Below are positions 1-58,721 of a stretch of 64,000 bases of DNA, piece by piece. The DNA is taken from NCBI GenBank assembly GCA_036726225.1, contig DAIMCS010000002.1, forward strand, positions 123,743 through 187,742. Direction: 5' to 3'. Position numbers and translations under genes: made by a program. The stretch comes from Patescibacteria group bacterium. Its GTDB lineage: Bacteria > Patescibacteriota > Doudnabacteria > UBA920. A model generated the notes under the pieces. That model ran no database searches. It was not told the origin of the DNA and worked only from the letters and a program-made list of their open reading frames with translations. Every line of letters starts with the position of its first letter. Positions within the stretch are counted from its first letter, which is position 1.

Positions 1-233
1 AAAAGAATATTCTCCCACTGACTCTGCCCAATACCAAAATACTGGTAAATCTTTAGTGGCGCTTTCCACTTGCTGGCCGGTTGGCAGCACAGCCAAAAGG
101 TTAGTTGTGTACGGCGAGTTAATGCAGGTTGAAAAGTAATAAGTTCGCTTTGCCCTTGACAACAAGAGATAAAACCATTATAATTAAAAGTTAAAATCAT
201 TATCCATCTTATTTAAGCTTTAAACGAGTACTT

Positions 234-3200
234 ATGAACAAAATATTACAAGTGTTAAAACCTCAAGTTAGTTTACCAATTGCCCTGGCCATTTTAGTTG
301 GCTTAAGCGGCGTTTTTGTAATGTCGCCAAGGGCCTCCAGAATTGTAAAAGCCGAAAATTGTAACAATGCCCCTTCTGTAGCGACTTTAAACTTTTACCC
401 GGTTACCTGGGGAAACGTTGCGGGTGTTAACTGTTTGGATTTTGCTCCTATATCTATAAGAAACGTAAACAATCCTAATTACGCCCCGAGCGTTTCTGCC
501 CAGCCCGGAGAAGAAATGTATGTAAGTATTTACGTACACAATGGCGCCAGACAAGATGGCGACCCAAACCAAACCACAGCCCAAAATGTAAACGGGAGCA
601 TTTCGCTTTCCGGCAATACCATTTCCACAAGTTTTGCAGGTTCTAATACCAACACCAAAACTGGTGATGTCACTGTAGATATGCCTTCCGGTGCGACTTT
701 GGAAATTATTCCGGGTACAGAGGAATTTTTTGACTATCAATTTAGACCCATTTCCAAAAGTGTCAATTTAACTACTACCGGCGGGAGTTTTAATTTAGGT
801 GATATGCTCGCCTGTTTTGAATATTCCATTCAGCTTCGTTTTAAAGTAAAAGTTGTCGGGGCGGCTGCAGGCACAGGCAATATTGACGCGCAGACAAAAG
901 ACCAAAACTGCCCGGCCGGCAATTACAACGGCATTGTAAGCTGGAATGTTAGCGGCGGCGTTACCCAATCTGCCGTTTATGTCGATGATTTAAATGACAA
1001 CTTAGGCCCGCAATATTTTAGCGGTGAGCTTTGGGCTGAAAACAAAGCAATCTCTTTAATTCCAAACCATACTTTTGTTTTTACTCTCTATTCTGTTCAA
1101 AACGGAGTTGAAACTAAAATCTCTGAGGATTCCACCGGCGTTGTACCTGCGCTTAATTGCGGCGAGGATGCCACCGGAAATATTGATGTAGTCGTGCAGA
1201 GTCAAAACTGCCCGGCCGGCAATTACAACGGCATTGTAAGCTGGAATGTTAGCGGCGGCGTTACCCAATCTGCCGTTTATGTCGATGATTTAAATGACAA
1301 CTTAGGCCCGCAATATTTTAGCGGTGAGCTTTGGGCTGAAAACAAAGCAATCTCTTTAATTCCAAACCATACTTTTGTTTTTACTCTCTATTCTGTTCAA
1401 AACGGAGTTGAAACTAAAATCTCTGAGGATTCCACCGGCGTTGTACCTGCGCTTAATTGCGGCGAAGGCCCCACCACTTTAGTTTGTACGCCCCAAACGC
1501 AGACTGTAAATTCCGGAGCCCAGGCAAGTATTACTGCCAGCGGAGGCACTGCTCCATATTCATGGAAAGAAGGCGGCGTAGTAGTCAGCACACAGCCTAC
1601 CATTACCAGGACTTATACCAACCCTCTAACCTCTACTCAAACCAATACGCTTACTGTTTCAAGCTCAGACGGTCAAACTAAAACTTGTATTATATATGTA
1701 AATGGAGTTAGCGCTCCGCAAAGCGCCAGTATTGTTATAACTAAAGATGTCAGAAATATTACCCAAAACCAGTCTACTTTTGTGGATTCTACATCTGCCA
1801 AACAAAACGATACTTTAGAATACCGCATTGTGGTATCGGCAGGCAGCTCTGTGGCTTTAAACAACGTTGTTGTAACCGACACCTTTGCATCCGGCTTAAC
1901 TTATTTAAGCGGTTCTATTAGGGTAAACGGCCAGCCGCACAGCGCCGGGCTCTCCAGCGGGGGATTAACTTTCTCTTCTGTTAGCCAGGGTTCTCCGTTA
2001 ACTATTACTTACCAGGCCACAGTTAACGCCTCCAGCGGCACTATTGTAAATACCGCTAAGGCCACTGCTTCTAATTCAATCAATTTTCCTAGCGATACTG
2101 CAACTGTAAACGTAACTACGAATCCGGTTTCAGTTAATTGTACTGCTAATCCGACCGTTATTAATATAAACGGTTCAACTACTTTTTCCGCCTCAGGCGG
2201 CAATGGTTCTTATTCTTGGACTGTAACCGGCGGCAGTGTAACCAATTCAACTCAACAAAGCTTTAACTCAACTTTCAACACTGCGGGCACTTTTATAGCC
2301 ACTGTCTCCAGCGGCGGCAATTCCGCCACCTGTAACGTTGTTGTAAACAGCAACCCTAACAATTTAGTTTGTTATGCTAACCCATCTGTAATAAGCTCCG
2401 GTCAAAGCGTGACTTTTACTGCCTCAGGCGGCAGCGGATCTTATACTTGGCATGACAACGGCAACACTTATTTCGGCAGCTCTTACACACCTAACCCAAA
2501 TTACATTAACAACTCTACAGGGTCTATTACCCGCACCGTAACTGTAAACAGCGGCGGCCAAACCGTGCAATGCAGCGTTACTATAAACGGTATTAGCAAC
2601 CCGGGCCAGGCCATTTTGAACATTTCCAAAATGGTCAGGAATACAAACGGCGGCGCTTATCAAAATAGCGTGACCGTAAATACTAATGACACTGTCCAGT
2701 TTGAAATTGTTGTAACCAACAACGGCAGCCAGACAGCAAACAATGTCCGCGTAACTGACAACCTAACTAACGGGTTAAGCTTAGTGCCGGGCAGCGTAAC
2801 TGTTGACGGTTCATACGCTTCTGATTCCACTATCTATTCAGGAATGTATTTAGGCAACTTAGTCCCCGGCCAACAAAAACGAATTAATTTTCAGGCCAGA
2901 ATTAATTCCACCGGTTCTTCCAGCATCCAAAATGTTGCCGTAGCCAACTCCGACAATGCGGGCAGCGTACAAGCCAGCGCCTGGGTTTTTGTAAGCCAGG
3001 TTTCTGGAGGTAATGTAAACTTAAATTACAGCAAGCGCGCTTTCAACGAAACTAGAAATGCCGATGCTACCACTGTTACTGCGCAAAGAGAAGACTTTAT
3101 TACTTATACTTTAACTGTCAACAACAGCGGCAATACACCTGCAAATAATTTCGTCATTACTGACGACCTAAGTCAGGTTTTGCAATATGCTGATATGGTG

Positions 3201-3512
3201 GACAATGGCGGGGGTAGTTTAAACGGCAGTGTTATAAATTATCCGGGTATAACTGTTCCGGCCGGCGGTAGCGTATCGCGCAGCTTTAAAGTGAGAGTCA
3301 AGTTCTCGCTTGCCAGCAACCTTAGCTACACTATGACTAACACTTACGGCAATACCGTAACTGTCAGAATTAACACTCCGCAGGTTTTAGGCAACTTTGT
3401 TGCTCCTAAGACCGGTGCGGAAACTGCGGCTTTCAGTTTTGCAGGCATATTTACCGGCGCTGCAGCGCTTATTAGAAAAAGAAAGTATTTAATGAAGCTT
3501 ATCTTTACTTAA
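234..3512 (+). CDS. Large secreted cell-surface protein with DUF11-type 'conserved repeat domain' modules and Ig-like repeats; C-terminal sortase-like sorting signal
   Basis: N-terminal signal peptide (KPQVSLPIALAILVGLSGVFVMSP). Repeated modules of type VVTDTFASGLTYLSGS / VTDNLTNGLSLVPGSVTV typical of DUF11. The C-terminus is VAPKTGAE + hydrophobic stretch + RKRK, resembling an LPXTG-type cell-wall sorting signal. A terminator follows. Confidence 0.8.
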   Translation: MNKILQVLKPQVSLPIALAILVGLSGVFVMSPRASRIVKAENCNNAPSVATLNFYPVTWGNVAGVNCLDFAPISIRNVNNPNYAPSVSAQPGEEMYVSIYVHNGARQDGDPNQTTAQNVNGSISLSGNTISTSFAGSNTNTKTGDVTVDMPSGATLEIIPGTEEFFDYQFRPISKSVNLTTTGGSFNLGDMLACFEYSIQLRFKVKVVGAAAGTGNIDAQTKDQNCPAGNYNGIVSWNVSGGVTQSAVYVDDLNDNLGPQYFSGELWAENKAISLIPNHTFVFTLYSVQNGVETKISEDSTGVVPALNCGEDATGNIDVVVQSQNCPAGNYNGIVSWNVSGGVTQSAVYVDDLNDNLGPQYFSGELWAENKAISLIPNHTFVFTLYSVQNGVETKISEDSTGVVPALNCGEGPTTLVCTPQTQTVNSGAQASITASGGTAPYSWKEGGVVVSTQPTITRTYTNPLTSTQTNTLTVSSSDGQTKTCIIYVNGVSAPQSASIVITKDVRNITQNQSTFVDSTSAKQNDTLEYRIVVSAGSSVALNNVVVTDTFASGLTYLSGSIRVNGQPHSAGLSSGGLTFSSVSQGSPLTITYQATVNASSGTIVNTAKATASNSINFPSDTATVNVTTNPVSVNCTANPTVININGSTTFSASGGNGSYSWTVTGGSVTNSTQQSFNSTFNTAGTFIATVSSGGNSATCNVVVNSNPNNLVCYANPSVISSGQSVTFTASGGSGSYTWHDNGNTYFGSSYTPNPNYINNSTGSITRTVTVNSGGQTVQCSVTINGISNPGQAILNISKMVRNTNGGAYQNSVTVNTNDTVQFEIVVTNNGSQTANNVRVTDNLTNGLSLVPGSVTVDGSYASDSTIYSGMYLGNLVPGQQKRINFQARINSTGSSSIQNVAVANSDNAGSVQASAWVFVSQVSGGNVNLNYSKRAFNETRNADATTVTAQREDFITYTLTVNNSGNTPANNFVITDDLSQVLQYADMVDNGGGSLNGSVINYPGITVPAGGSVSRSFKVRVKFSLASNLSYTMTNTYGNTVTVRINTPQVLGNFVAPKTGAETAAFSFAGIFTGAAALIRKRKYLMKLIFT
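903..1465 (+). repeat. Perfect tandem duplication (2 x 300 bp period, 263 bp identical) inside the adhesin gene, in frame
   Basis: Positions 903-1165 are identical base-for-base to 1203-1465 (checked line by line). They encode NCPAGNYNGIVSWNVSGGVTQSAVYVDDLNDNLGPQYF...VVPALNCGE twice. Confidence 0.95.
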
Positions 3513-3525
3513 AAATAAAATTAAA

Positions 3526-3566
3526 AAAGCCCCGAATCCGCTATCTGGCAGACGGGGCTTTTTTAC
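3526..3566 (+). terminator. Rho-independent terminator after adhesin gene
   Basis: aaagccccg...cggggctttttt hairpin plus T-run. Confidence 0.7.
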
Positions 3567-4086
3567 TTGCGCAATTTCGGGGAAGTGCTATTATAAAAGT
3601 AAATCGGGCTTAAAATGCCCTACCAAACAGAGGTGGAAATGAAGGTAGCTCCGTACGGCCGAGAAAGAAATGACCGGAAAAAAGTTTTGTTGCTGAGTTT
3701 ATTGGTAACTTTTTGCCTACTGTTTACGGCCTGGCAACTTGCGCAAACTCGCGTATACAGAGAAAGACCAGGGGAGCAATTGCAACCACTGCCTTCCCCG
3801 CTGACGGTTCAATATGTTTGCGGGCAAAAAGGAGTTGTGTGCGTATGGGGGTAGCCCACTTAATCAAAAGGGGGGCCGTCGGTACAAACCTTCCGCCCCT
3901 TCCTCATCTTAACAAAACAAAAACCAACAGCTAGAAAGCTGTTTTTATTTTTACCAGCCAACCAATGACTAACCAATATCTTTTAGACCTAATTCATGAA
4001 GCAAACAACCGCGGCGGCGGTATGGTTTTAAATTTGGACGGACAGCCCCAAGTTGTCGTTTTGACTTTGGATCGGTATAATCAAAT

Positions 4087-5077
4087 TATGAATAAGGAAT
4101 CAATAAAAAATAAAGAATTAAAAGTGCTGGTCACCGGCGGAGCGGGGTATATTGGCGGGCATTTGGTGAAAGAATTGACAGAAGCAGGTTATCAGGTGGT
4201 GGTTTTAGATAATTTATCCAGCGGCAAAAGAGAAAATATTGACCCCAGGGCTGTTTTTATAGAAGGGGATTTGGCCGACACAAATTTGCTTAAAGATATT
4301 TTTGCGGCCAATAAATTTGACGCAGTTTTCCATATGGCTGCGAGCGTGGAAGTGGAAGAATCGGTCAAAGAGCCTCAAAAATATTTTGACAACAATGTCA
4401 GCAATACCAACAAGCTTTTAAACGCAATGGCAGAAGCCGGGTGTAAAAAGATTATTTATTCCTCCACAGCCGCGGTTTACGGCGAAAGCCAAAACCCCAT
4501 AACCGAAACTTCACCGCTGCACCCTTCCAGCCCTTATGGCGCAAGCAAACTTTTGGGCGAGCGGGCCATAAAATATTTTTGCGAAAATTTGGGTTTTTCC
4601 GCCGTTGTATTCCGTTATTTTAATGCCTGCGGTTTTAACCCAAAAGCTAAAATTTTGCCTACCCACCAGTCGCATTTAATTTACAATGTTATGCAAGTTG
4701 CTTTGGGGCGAAAATCTGCCCTGCAGGTTTTTGGCAACAGTTACAACACCCTGGACGGCACGGGGATTCGGGATTATGTGCATATTTTGGATATTGTCCA
4801 TCCTCATATTCTGGCTTTAAATAAGCTGGACGGAAATAAATTCGAAATTATAAATATTGGTACCGGCAAAGGCAGTAGTGTTGCACAAGTAATTAATACC
4901 GCGTCAGAAGTTTTAAACAAAATTATTCCCATGGAGATTGTGGGGAAAAGAGCAGGGGACTCTGCTATTACCGTAGCCGACAACGCTAAGCTTCGGAAAG
5001 ATTTAGGTTATGAACTCAAATATAGTGATTTAGAGAATATAATTAGGACTAGTTGGGAAGGCATGAAGAACATATAG
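4087..5077 (+). CDS. galE: UDP-glucose 4-epimerase (NAD-dependent epimerase/dehydratase); the ORF is open upstream to 3965 (alternative start)
   Basis: Rossmann motif VLVTGGAGYIGGH, YSSTAAVYG, and catalytic SPYGASK (YxxxK). A TATAAT at 4074-4079 lies 7 nt before the ATG at 4087. Confidence 0.85.
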
Positions 5078-7842: not shown

Positions 7843-9699
7843 ATGCTCAAAAGAAAAATTTTAAAATTTATAAGCGCCGTAATATTATTCAGCTTCCCGC
7901 TGGCCGCGTTGGCTATGCCGGTTGACCCAAATTTTAACCCGGCCAAACTCATTGACGACAAAGTTTTTTCCGACATTCAAACTTTTGGCGGTCCGGAAGG
8001 CGTGCAGAAATTTTTGGAAAGTAAAAATTCGGTTTTGGCAAACACCTCCGCGGATTTTTTGGTTAAGCTCAAAGAGCCGCAGGCTACCCAACTAAAAGAA
8101 GGCCTGGAAGACCCGCAGCCAAATTTAGGCAGGCTTAGGACAGCTGCGGAGCTTATTTGGGACGCCTCCAGGCAAAGCGGGCTTAACCCCCAGGTACTCC
8201 TGGTGACTTTAAACAAAGAGCAGGGGTTAATTACTTCTGCCGGGGATTTTTCCCAAAGCCAGCTGCAAAAAGCTTTAGACAGATCTATGGGTTTTGATTG
8301 TCCGGACGGCGGAGGCTGCGGTAGTTTGTTTCCGGGTTTTTATTATCAATTATTTGGGAATTTTGACTCCGAAGGCAACCGTTATTTAGGCGCGGCCAAA
8401 TCTTTAATGAAATCTTTTACCACAGACGGCGGGCGGGGACCGATTATTGACGGGCGTACCGCAAAGGTAGGCGAGACAATAGTCTTGGGCAACACTTTAG
8501 GCGGCTATGAAAATATTTTGCCTTCGCAGTCGGTGTGGCTGACCAATAATGCAACCGCCGCGCTTTACCGGTATACTCCGCATGTTTTTAACGGCAATTA
8601 CAATTTTTGGAAATTTTTCCAGGCGTGGTTTAAATATCCCAACGGCACGCTGCTTAAAATGGCGAGCTCCGGGGAAACATACATTATCCAAAACGGACTT
8701 AAAGCTTTTGTCCCGCAATTCGTGGCAGCTGCCAGAGGGCTTGATTTAAACAGCACCGTTATAATTTCGCCTACGGAATACGAAAGTTATGTAACAGACA
8801 AGCCGTTGGGGCCGGAAAATAACACCATTGTGCAGCTGCCGGGCCAAAACGAGAAATACGTATTTATAGACAACGTCAGGCACTTGGCGTCAGATTTGGT
8901 AATTAAGCAAAGAGGTTTGGATCCTAAAAAAGTTTTGAGCATTTTGCCGGACGAAGCCGCAATTTTTGAAGCCGGCAGTGTTTTGCCTCCCAAAGACGGC
9001 ACAGTTATCCGCGGCACAACTAACCAGGCAGTATTTTTGGTTAAAGACGGCAAAATTAAAATGTTCAGCGCTTACACATTTGCCCAAAATAAAATTACCA
9101 AAAAAGATATTATAACTGTTCCGGATTCCGAAATTGGCACTTATTCCCAAAGCGGTTTTGTAGCACCGCTCGACGGCAGCCTGGTTAAATCGGCAAACGA
9201 TAGCACAGTTTATTTAGTCCAAAGCTCACTTAAGCAGCCGCTGCTCGGCGAGATTTTCAAGAACCGCGGCTTAAGCTTTAAAAAAGTGGCAATAATTTCA
9301 TCTGACGAGTTAAATGCTCTGCCTATGGGCGGGTTGGCTACGCCTAAAGAGCTTACCTACTTTGCTGCCGATTCAAAGACCGGGCCTTTGTATATTTTTA
9401 AAGAAGGTTCAGTGCACAGCATCTCCAGTTTTGTTGCCAAACAACGCGGCATTACCCCGGATTATATATTTAGCACCAGCGCAATAAATTTTTGGATTGT
9501 GGGAATTCCCATCCCGCCTAAAGACAACACCATTGTAAAAGGCGATACTGACAATACAGTCTATCTTGTTTTAAAAGGCCAGTTAAGGCCTTTAACCTAC
9601 CAAGCTTTCACCAACCGAAAAATTACGTCCAAGAAAATTGTGAGTTTGCCACAGGCCGAAGTTGACGCTTACGCCAAAGGGGAGATAATCACCAAGTAG
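7843..9699 (+). CDS. Secreted hypothetical protein with six C-terminal ~55-aa repeats of the same family as the S8 protease tail (ORF open from 7762)
   Basis: Signal peptide MLKRKILKFISAVILFSFPLAALA. Repeats DGTVIRGTTNQAVFLVKDGKIKMFS / DGSLVKSANDSTVYLVQSSLKQPL / DNTIVKGDTDNTVYLVLKGQLRPL. Confidence 0.75.
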   Translation: MLKRKILKFISAVILFSFPLAALAMPVDPNFNPAKLIDDKVFSDIQTFGGPEGVQKFLESKNSVLANTSADFLVKLKEPQATQLKEGLEDPQPNLGRLRTAAELIWDASRQSGLNPQVLLVTLNKEQGLITSAGDFSQSQLQKALDRSMGFDCPDGGGCGSLFPGFYYQLFGNFDSEGNRYLGAAKSLMKSFTTDGGRGPIIDGRTAKVGETIVLGNTLGGYENILPSQSVWLTNNATAALYRYTPHVFNGNYNFWKFFQAWFKYPNGTLLKMASSGETYIIQNGLKAFVPQFVAAARGLDLNSTVIISPTEYESYVTDKPLGPENNTIVQLPGQNEKYVFIDNVRHLASDLVIKQRGLDPKKVLSILPDEAAIFEAGSVLPPKDGTVIRGTTNQAVFLVKDGKIKMFSAYTFAQNKITKKDIITVPDSEIGTYSQSGFVAPLDGSLVKSANDSTVYLVQSSLKQPLLGEIFKNRGLSFKKVAIISSDELNALPMGGLATPKELTYFAADSKTGPLYIFKEGSVHSISSFVAKQRGITPDYIFSTSAINFWIVGIPIPPKDNTIVKGDTDNTVYLVLKGQLRPLTYQAFTNRKITSKKIVSLPQAEVDAYAKGEIITK

Positions 9700-24747: not shown

Positions 24748-24844
24748 ATTGACCAAGATTAAGTAAGATTTAAAAGATTGAACAAGAATGTAATGGCAAT
24801 CATGTCAATCTTGGTCAATCCTGATCAATCATTTAAATTCACCT
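24748..24844 (+). repeat. Intergenic repeat-family element abutting the rpsM start (copy B)
   Basis: Nearly identical to 25790-25907 except for the 20-bp palindrome insertion in that copy. The 3' 45 nt (aatcatgtcaatcttggtcaatcctgatcaatcatttaaattca) are identical in both. Confidence 0.85.
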
Positions 24845-25234
24845 ATGGCTAGAATTGCCGGGATAAATCTTCCCAACGAAAAAAGAATAGAAGCAGCCTT
24901 GCCCTACATCTACGGTGTAGGTTTAAGTTTGTCAAAAAAAATTCTGGCGGAAACCAGCGTTGATCCTAATAAAAGAACAAAAGATTTATCTGAACCCGAA
25001 CTTAACAGAATTAGGGAATATATAGAAAAAAGCTTTAAGGTAGAAGGGGAATTGCGACAGCAAATTTTGCTCAACATAAAACGCCTTAAAGAAATTGGGT
25101 CTTACCGAGGGGTCAGGCACATTAAAGGCCTGCCGGTCAGAGGACAAAGAACCAAAACCAATTCCCGTACCCGAAGAGGTAACGTTAGAAAAACCGCAGG
25201 CTCGGGTAGAAAGAACGCGGCGGAAAAAACCTAG
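24845..25234 (+). CDS. rpsM: 30S ribosomal protein S13
   Basis: [26 protein letters not shown]... Confidence 0.92.
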
Positions 25235-25789: not shown

Positions 25790-25907
25790 AATTGAACAAG
25801 ATTAAGTAAGATTTACCTGCCTGCCGGCAGGCAGGAATGATTGAACAAGAGTGTACAGACAATCATGTCAATCTTGGTCAATCCTGATCAATCATTTAAA
25901 TTCATTT
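25790..25907 (+). repeat. Intergenic repeat-family element abutting the rpsD start (copy C), carrying a nested CCTGCCTGCCGGCAGGCAGG palindrome at 25816-25835
   Basis: Alignment by eye to copy B shows a clean 20-bp insertion. Confidence 0.85.
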
Positions 25908-26516
25908 ATGCGTTATACAGGTCCAAAAGTAAAAAAAGCAAGACGCCTGGGGATGGCTTTTACCCCCAAAGACGTAAAAATCCTCCAAAAGAGGAATTTT
26001 GCGCCTGGCCAGCACGGCCAAAACCGCAGCCGTCTTTCTGAATACGGAACCCAGCTCAAAGAAAAGCAGAAAGCTAAAGTGGCTTATGGAATAATGGAAC
26101 GCCAGTTCGAAATTTATTTTAACAAAGCTTTAAAGCAAACGGGAGTTACCGGTGACAACTTGCTCAAACTTTTGGAGCACCGGTTAGATAACATTGTTTT
26201 CCGTTTAGGTTTTGCTGAAACCCGCGCCCAGGCCAGACAGTTAGTTAACCACGGTTTTTTTGAAGTTAACGGCAAGCGCGTAGACATCCCTTCTTTTTCT
26301 GTTAAAGTCGGTGACATTGTTTCCGTCAGGCCGGTTAAACAGAAGAAAGCTTATATTGAAAAGATTAAAGAGAAGTTAAAGAATTTTAAAACTTTAGACT
26401 GGCTGCAATTAAACCCCGGTGAATTTAAAGGTAAAATTGTAAGCAGCCCGGAAGTCGAATCTTTGGGCTCCGAAATTAACACTCAGCTTATTGTTGAGCA
26501 TTATAGTAGGACATAA
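25908..26516 (+). CDS. rpsD: 30S ribosomal protein S4 (ORF track starts at an upstream in-frame M inside the repeat; true start MRYTGPK)
   Basis: MRYTGPKVKKARRLG...LDNIVFRLGFAETRAQARQLVNHG. Confidence 0.9.
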   Translation: MRYTGPKVKKARRLGMAFTPKDVKILQKRNFAPGQHGQNRSRLSEYGTQLKEKQKAKVAYGIMERQFEIYFNKALKQTGVTGDNLLKLLEHRLDNIVFRLGFAETRAQARQLVNHGFFEVNGKRVDIPSFSVKVGDIVSVRPVKQKKAYIEKIKEKLKNFKTLDWLQLNPGEFKGKIVSSPEVESLGSEINTQLIVEHYSRT

Positions 26517-29168: not shown

Positions 29169-29512
29169 TGCTTTAAGCAAACTCGTAAGCCGAATTCTGT
29201 TTCTAAATAATCATCTATCTGGTCACGTTATTGCTAACGTGATCAAGCAACCTACCTAATTTGGTCTTGCACTCAAGTAAGGATTTGGCCGTTTCACCTT
29301 TAATGTTTCCATCAAAGCTAATCTCTTGCGAGATCCTTGGCGTCTTTCGTACCAAGCGTCTCTGTTCGCACCTCTAGGATTACTCCCGACGGGAATTACC
29401 CGCTACCAGTTTTGATAACTCATATGAGGCTATCAAATAAGTGTTCGGACTTTCCTCCCCAACCGGCATCTTGCGATGCCAATTAAAGCGATTATTCGGT
29501 TTGCTTAAAGCC
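29169..29512 (-). ncRNA. rnpB: RNase P RNA, bacterial type A
   Basis: The minus-strand reading contains GGGGAGGAAAGTCCG (P4 / CR-I), AAAGGTGAAACGGCC (GGUGAAA region) and ACAGAATTCGGCTTACGAG (ACAGAAnCCGGCUUA, CR-V). The P1 stem is gctttaagcaaac / gtttgcttaaagc. Length ~344 nt. Confidence 0.85.
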
Positions 29513-58427: not shown

Positions 58428-58721
58428 TTATTGTTGGAACGGGAGTCTTACTGCTGTGATGAGCACGACTAAGAATAGTAAGACACACAGTATAGCCAAA
58501 ACTACAAAGGCAGTTAACAAAACGAGATGCCAAAGTATTCCCGGGCCTTGACTCTGATTGTGCTCAATGGCCTCCAGTAATAAATAAAATATGGAGACGC
58601 CAACTATTACTATAACCTGGGTCAAAAATTCCTTTGAGGCTTCGTCATCTGCAGTAAAAAAAGCAAATATCAGGCTTCCAACCACCATGAGCAAAATTAT
58701 GACCCTTGTTCCTCTGTCCAT
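58428..58721 (-). CDS. Small three-TM hypothetical membrane protein
   Basis: ORF with three hydrophobic helices; no motif recognised. Confidence 0.4.
   Translation of the reverse strand: MDRGTRVIILLMVVGSLIFAFFTADDEASKEFLTQVIVIVGVSIFYLLLEAIEHNQSQGPGILWHLVLLTAFVVLAILCVLLFLVVLITAVRLPFQQ

Follow-up and report, generated by a model that had tools for sequence, protein, structure and literature searches.

An adhesin gene with an internal repeat

The window, by which we mean the whole 64-kb stretch of DNA analyzed here, contains near its start a gene for a surface protein of the fibrillar-adhesin type, the features of which are collected in Table 1. The encoded protein of 1092 aa matches the Pfam family DUF11/CLIPPER in three stretches (E 1e-22; best stretch at aa 811–908), DUF7507/DUF7619 at aa 942–986 and, weakly, PKD at aa 635–692. 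A further match was obtained for TIGR01451 (E 3.4e-25). The three PKD-like modules of the stalk share 65–78% nucleotide identity over a conserved core of 51 nt. The N-terminus of the protein is a hydrophobic signal or transmembrane segment, the PKTGA(D/E)T tail is common to most of the homologues, and where the locus is recovered more completely, the gene directly upstream of the adhesin gene encodes a sortase (L001, 8602–9906). As judged from these sequence features, the gene product is best explained as a putative sortase-anchored fibrillar adhesin of Doudnabacteria-like Patescibacteria. The SecA protein encoded in the window shares 71–78% identity with proteins assigned to Candidatus Doudnabacteria, which places the organism in the Patescibacteria/CPR.

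Table 1 Coordinates of the surface-protein gene, its upstream site and its parts in the window.
Feature	Position	Strand	Basis
Promoter-like site TTGACA-17-TATAAT	156..184	+	12/12 sigma-70 consensus positions, ~50 nt before the ATG at 234; consensus match only
Surface-protein (fibrillar-adhesin-type) gene, 1092 aa, holding the repeat	234..3512	+	ORF; DUF11/CLIPPER and TIGR01451 matches
N-terminal ~175-aa domain, putative tip/adhesive domain	345..869 (aa 38–212)	+	Unmatched in Pfam and NCBIfam
Module 1, first beta-strand (TGNIDAQTKD), not part of the perfect repeat	870..902	+	Inside strand E4–15 of the AF2 model; in register with 1170–1202, diverged
Perfect repeat copy 1, core of FN3-like module 1	903..1165	+	263/263 identical to 1203–1465
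Unique 37-nt spacer: inter-module linker and first beta-strand of module 2 (DATGNIDVVVQS)	1166..1202	+	17/37 identical to 866–902
Perfect repeat copy 2, core of FN3-like module 2	1203..1465	+	263/263 identical to 903–1165
Remaining stalk: three diverged PKD-like modules and DUF11/CLIPPER-type domains	1466..3404	+	Repeat family and Pfam
C-terminal sorting signal: PKTG motif, hydrophobic stretch, RKRK tail	3405..3509	+	Read from the translation

Among 150 representative homologous proteins, the N-terminal domain of ~175 aa gave 236 domain matches, 104 of them N-terminal and 44 at the extreme C-terminus. Its AlphaFold (AF2) model reached a pLDDT of 93.7, and the predicted fold resembles the Ig-type domains of Gram-positive adhesins and pilins. 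The same domain occurs as five tandem copies at the C-terminus of a WD40-repeat protein of 2336 aa (P0003).

Behind this domain, the gene carries two copies of a 263-nt sequence which are identical at every position and spaced 300 nt from start to start. Tandem Repeats Finder reported an array at 903–1465 with a period of 300, 1.9 copies, 100% matches, no indels and a score of 1126. The pair is the sole long direct repeat of the window, and a 42-mer taken from it occurs twice exactly, where 100 shuffles of the sequence gave an expectation of zero; the repeat is far beyond chance. It lies in frame within the ORF, with the period corresponding to 100 codons. According to the ORF list, no minus-strand ORF of at least 80 aa overlaps the array, and an element on that strand was rejected on this ground. 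The initial annotation of this DNA had described a perfect 263-bp tandem repeat with a 300-bp period in an adhesin gene, and the base-by-base comparison, Tandem Repeats Finder and the in-frame ORF all bear this out. Its further statement that two identical modules of ~100 aa are present holds for the cores (263/263) but not for the 37 nt ahead of each core, which match at 17/37 positions.

These two 37-nt segments encode AGTGNIDAQTKD in module 1 and DATGNIDVVVQS in module 2, and the spacer, beginning with GGATGCCACCGG, directly joins the end of repeat copy 1 in the two-copy window. Over their first 16 nt, both segments encode the same TGNID peptide with three synonymous third-position changes (ACA/ACC, GGC/GGA and GAC/GAT), so that the conserved codons differ at 3/5 synonymous sites between the modules. 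The following 14 nt are unrelated (AQTKD versus VVVQS). Compared with the sequences flanking the array, the 37-nt junction is identical at 17/37 positions to the upstream flank and at 11/37 to the downstream flank.

A family of FN3-like modules

The 100-aa module matched no Pfam family at E ≤ 0.1. The AF2 model of a single module showed a pLDDT of 95.1, with the segment outside the perfect core forming the first beta-strand (E4–15), and the best fold matches of this model were FN3 domains, not CnaA-type domains. Based on the model, we are confident that the module is predicted to adopt an FN3-like fold and that it belongs to an unannotated family. It differs from FN3 domains in sharing only 7–18% sequence identity with them, in giving no match to PF00041 at E ≤ 0.1, and in having a near-terminal pair of cysteines atypical of FN3, of which the C-terminal one is invariant and the N-terminal one mostly conserved. 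An assignment of the module to DUF11/CLIPPER (PF01345) was rejected, given the absence of a Pfam match and the fold similarity to FN3; DUF11 is found elsewhere in the gene (aa 811–908 and others). Consequently, the earlier description as a DUF11 adhesin gene applies to the ORF as a whole and does not extend to the duplicated module. The DUF11 domain itself was recently given the name CLIPPER, and fibrillar adhesins are described as using it as a CnaA-like domain of their stalks (PMC12617251). With the adhesins of that type, the window gene shares three stretches above the Pfam threshold and the order of signal, tip, stalk and sorting signal, whereas its duplicated module is not a CLIPPER domain.

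In the 150 representative homologues, the module is present in 1–5 copies after the N-terminal domain. For eight proteins (P0089, P0066, P0027, P0119, P0011, P0006, P0025 and the window protein), the modules within one protein are 81–100% identical, while the nearest module in another protein is only 41–75% identical. This difference indicates that amplification or homogenization of the modules is recurrent and lineage-specific. Two relatives were inspected at the DNA level. In the first (L024, 1090–1695, from NCBI assembly GCA_041658405.1, encoding homologue P0006), the same module type is duplicated in tandem with a period of 306 nt and 98% nucleotide identity; there are ~5 differences in the module coding sequence, all of them synonymous, and the 2.5-kb contig ends inside the gene. 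The second (L025) shows the mosaic pattern of the window: its first strands have diverged, and its cores are nearly identical apart from an intervening diverged patch. The DNA of these relatives shows what would be the two expected modes, namely clean young duplication (L024) and mosaic (L025).

Such a pattern resembles the concerted evolution of intragenic repeats described for streptococcal alpha C/Rib and staphylococcal repeat proteins, in which identity within a protein also greatly exceeds identity between species and mosaic tracts occur. In distinction from those cases, gene conversion in the window gene is read from the sequence pattern only. Besides that, a homologue of 2348 aa (P0007) contains a block of ~290 aa repeated at least five times at near-identity. 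This block consists of two PKD-like modules and a 'DFTL(T/V)TDNNFCVGQ...' domain, so that the protein family also includes a Periscope-like array of far greater size.

One-copy and two-copy forms among assemblies

Using an exhaustive HMMER search, we found a protein of 992 aa (P0002) that is shorter than the window protein by exactly 100 aa, carries a single module and is otherwise identical in sequence. This one-copy allele is present unbroken on at least eight contigs from five or more samples, including JGI 3300009609 and 3300011416 and the ENA MEGAHIT k141 assemblies ERZ27267632, ERZ27267673 and ERZ27267613. The contigs of the three ENA assemblies span 29–202 kb, with that of ERZ27267613 measuring 202,045 bp. 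In five fetched loci (L001–L004 and L013), the one-copy DNA is 100.000% identical to the window on either side of the missing 300 bp. Altogether, 34,008 bases of the window were matched at 100% by other assemblies, including a second region from the far end of the window, and the copy-number difference is the only change across those 34 kb. Repeat number therefore differs between near-identical genomes (992 aa versus 1092 aa, flanks 100% identical), as represented by short-read assemblies; all one-copy records are short-read metagenome assemblies. The two-copy product of 1092 aa is known from one record only, at NCBI, on the 202,313-bp contig of the window itself. Between the window and the fetched same-strain assemblies, we found point differences only at 8338 and 8352 (L018) and at 58584 (L012), representing slight SNP-level microdiversity in the samples JGI 3300011434 and SRR6448454.

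One way to read this imbalance is that the strain truly has one copy and that the two-copy path of the window is a wrong or chimeric traversal, with a loop contributed by a minor or other strain. The one-copy contigs, from several samples and otherwise identical in sequence, would fit this reading, as would the single NCBI contig with the two-copy protein, the recovery of the spacer nowhere else and the one copy on an ENA contig nearly as long as that of the window. However, the spacer, which is absent from the one-copy allele, is evolved coding sequence; since it is in frame, homologous to the first strand of module 1 and bordered by the repeat on both sides, two modules or more must be present in some genome. 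For this reason, the suggestion that spanning reads with a single copy would reduce the repeat to a mis-assembly is too simple.

The failure to recover the spacer elsewhere carries little weight, as the searched collections were subsets or lacked very short contigs. A 29-mer of the spacer had no exact match in the GTDB representatives, a set without this strain, and none in a subset collection of JGI metagenome contigs, where a 30-mer from the repeat start found one locus only. This subset is incomplete, because contigs of 3300009609 and 3300011416 contain the repeat-start 30-mer and yet were not reported there. Similarly, ten predicted translations of spacer unitigs (k = 31–176) had no exact match in the protein collection, from which very short products are probably absent, and ten truncated N-terminal products predicted from upstream contigs were likewise without a match, such cut products probably being absent as well. 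In a word-index protein search, the junction peptide gave no match and aa 1–423 found P0001 only; the index evidently lacks P0002 and the window's own protein (P0151), although exact look-up shows both to be in the collection, so that negative results of this search are uninformative for the gene. Independent support for the spacer is thus indirect and comes from the forks in the assembly graphs.

More information on the copy number came from the places where other assemblies break. Break sites were located via contigs carrying the downstream epimerase gene (3965–5077), with coordinates determined by BLAST. At least five other same-strain assemblies break k or k-1 nt before the 3' end of the repeat, with k = 31, 103, 123 and 141. 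For example, Logan contigs built with k=31 (SRR6448456 and SRR6448376; 2–3 runs) begin at 1436, which is 30 nt (k-1) before the repeat end, and the ENA MEGAHIT k141 contig ERZ27267734 begins at 1325, 141 nt before it. Among the JGI contigs, two have their first base at 1343 and 1363, at distances of 123 and 103 nt from the end of the repeat, and for a third one the distance is 176 nt. A clean fork was seen on the 3' side only; on the upstream side, the single contig available (L023) stops within the repeat after 210 nt, a length that matches no k value.

In a de Bruijn calculation with these four values of k, the two-copy sequence forks within positions 1–4000 at the repeat boundaries only, whereas the one-copy sequence shows no forks at all. 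The observed breaks match this prediction and thus point to the repeat being followed by two different sequences, whereas breaks would not be expected from a population with one copy alone. As at least five independent assemblies fork at the 3' boundary at four k values, we consider the wrong-traversal reading unlikely. Unitig assemblers such as MEGAHIT break at a two-copy repeat longer than k if the loop has normal coverage, and would run through it only if the spacer path lay below roughly 20% of the local depth. With MEGAHIT k141, the one-copy form was assembled through in three samples and broken in a fourth, and the JGI assemblies are split into two that run through and three that break, the latter being 3300011441, 3300012173 and 3300011434. 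Since the same assembler produced both outcomes across samples, the difference lies in the reads.

This observation also bears on the converse reading, in which two copies or more are present in all populations, and the one-copy contigs result from collapse during assembly, without any biological variation. Tandem repeats longer than k are classic sites of collapse, and the short-read origin of every one-copy record would fit this reading. But in that case MEGAHIT should break at the repeat, as it does in ERZ27267734, and ERZ27267613, ERZ27267632 and ERZ27267673 nevertheless run through. On this argument, which depends on the graph cleaning expected of MEGAHIT, a uniform collapse seems quite unlikely.

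From the assembly sequences, we conclude that alleles with one copy and with two or more copies appear both to exist in an otherwise clonal population, in proportions that differ among samples. The expectation that the repeat is an assembly trouble-spot with copy-number differences was supported in both respects, with one copy on the unbroken contigs and breaks at the repeat boundary in the others. If the window itself stems from short-read graph assembly, its two copies would be identical by construction, and neither 'perfect' nor 'exactly two' would then be guaranteed. Moreover, the same sample may have given both the 202,045-bp contig with one copy and the 202,313-bp contig with two copies via different assemblers. 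In practical terms, short-read assemblies are untrustworthy for copy number in this adhesin gene, and gene catalogues hold both forms as separate proteins.

History of the repeat and comparison with known systems

The initial annotation had taken the zero divergence of the two copies as the sign of a very recent event, and a simple tandem duplication of a 300-bp unit, too young for substitutions to have accumulated, would indeed explain the lack of any difference in 263 nt. The same family provides a clean young whole-unit case in L024, and the existing one-copy alleles could in principle be the parent form. However, a fresh 300-bp duplication would give 300 identical bases and a junction built from the flanks. 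Here, the junction agrees with neither flank, and it nonetheless codes in frame for a homologous strand with synonymous changes. This indicates that the arrangement is old and that the spacer diverged long ago from the homologous first strand of module 1. Furthermore, no differences in 87 codons beside a spacer identical at 17/37 positions cannot both be explained by a uniform history of divergence. Taken together, we regard a recent simple duplication as very unlikely.

We favor instead, with a probability of roughly 0.6, an old array of two modules with recently homogenized cores, from which the one-copy allele arose as a deletion product and which results in size variation of the surface protein. 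In such a scenario, the two-module arrangement would be old enough for the first strands to have diverged to near saturation, while the remaining 263 nt of each module would recently have been made identical by non-reciprocal recombination between the copies. Gene conversion is thus the homogenizing step that we infer from the sequence pattern. Perfect direct repeats of 263 bp, 37 bp apart, would in turn lend themselves to recombination or replication slippage, and each of these processes could remove or add exactly one unit of 300 nt (100 aa) in frame. The one-copy allele, consisting of the upstream flank, one repeat and the downstream flank, would correspond to the product of a deletion. Recombination of identical cores yields precisely this one-copy form, and the spacer cannot arise again from an allele with one copy, so that the change in copy number probably proceeded in the direction from two to one. 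The outcome would be a surface protein shorter or longer by one domain of roughly 4 nm, without on/off switching, and the length change may be of adaptive value.

The earlier proposal of recombinational expansion and contraction, causing size or phase variation of a surface antigen, is consequently supported in its first part by the one-copy and two-copy forms and contradicted in its second part by the unit of 100 codons. Phase variation was rejected because a 300-nt unit keeps the reading frame and both alleles are full-length ORFs. Another candidate was the template and variable repeat pair of a DGR. In such pairs, the repeats differ mainly at the adenine positions of the template, and a reverse transcriptase is encoded nearby. 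With zero mismatches between the two 263-nt copies, this candidate was rejected as well.

The nearest known counterpart is found in the Periscope Proteins, in which long and highly identical DNA repeats encode folded domains, and intragenic recombination alters the length of the stalk and thereby the projection of the N-terminal domain (PMC8201768). Examples include the G5-E domains of SasG/Aap, Rib, SHIRT (Sgo_0707), Esp and CdrA (Whelan et al. 2021, PMC8201768). The window gene is similar to them in encoding a surface protein that has a putative functional domain at its N-terminus and an anchor at its C-terminus, as seen from its signal, its PKTG/RKRK tail and the upstream sortase, and the N-terminal domain is predicted to have an adhesin/pilin-type Ig fold. 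Tandem folded domains of high identity are likewise found, with cores identical at 263/263 positions and a module model at pLDDT 95.1, although there are only two units with 37 nt per unit diverged. Repeat number also differs between close relatives, both in the alleles of 992 aa and 1092 aa and in the k-dependent contig breaks, so that unit number varies between otherwise near-identical genomes here as it does there, and intragenic recombination is the proposed mechanism in both.

The differences are equally clear. Periscope Proteins reach more than 40 units, compared with two in the window gene, and they are known from cultured pathogens, whereas the window gene belongs to an uncultivated, ultra-small member of the Patescibacteria and has an unannotated FN3-like module. 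In addition, the identity between its units stops short of the whole unit, with the first strand diverged, and the system is known here from sequence and single-domain models. Considering both sides, the best reading of the locus is Periscope-type size variation by recombination between repeats, not phase variation. As such, the length variation of this surface protein seems to be genuine, though of an ordinary kind.

All cultivated Patescibacteria are attached to other microbes, and how they recognize and hold their hosts is largely obscure (PMC11623550). A sortase-anchored adhesin in which one 100-residue stalk module is the sole difference in 34 kb of otherwise identical sequence would offer a concrete case of surface-length variation for this group, which can be tested with existing reads. 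Two domain families without annotation also emerged from our analysis, namely the FN3-like module and the tip domain of ~175 aa. It is a tentative thought that, across the Patescibacteria, the FN3-like module may serve as a fast-evolving spacer behind a conserved adhesin-type tip domain, the copies of the module being repeatedly homogenized and gained or lost. In the present Doudnabacteria population, one-copy and two-copy forms would then coexist and shift in frequency between samples, with the remainder of the genome staying identical, and recombination would tune in situ how far the host-binding tip of an episymbiont projects.

Two further features were observed elsewhere in the window. A direct repeat of 75 nt with 91% identity is located at 24773–24847 and 25836–25910, and each copy sits immediately upstream of a ribosomal-protein gene and overlaps its beginning, the genes being S13-like (24845) and S4-like (25851); this repeat may be a duplicated leader or autoregulatory site. 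On the minus strand, a bacterial RNase P RNA of class A was identified at 29170–29507 (122 bits), which is the only Rfam match at the gathering threshold in the window.
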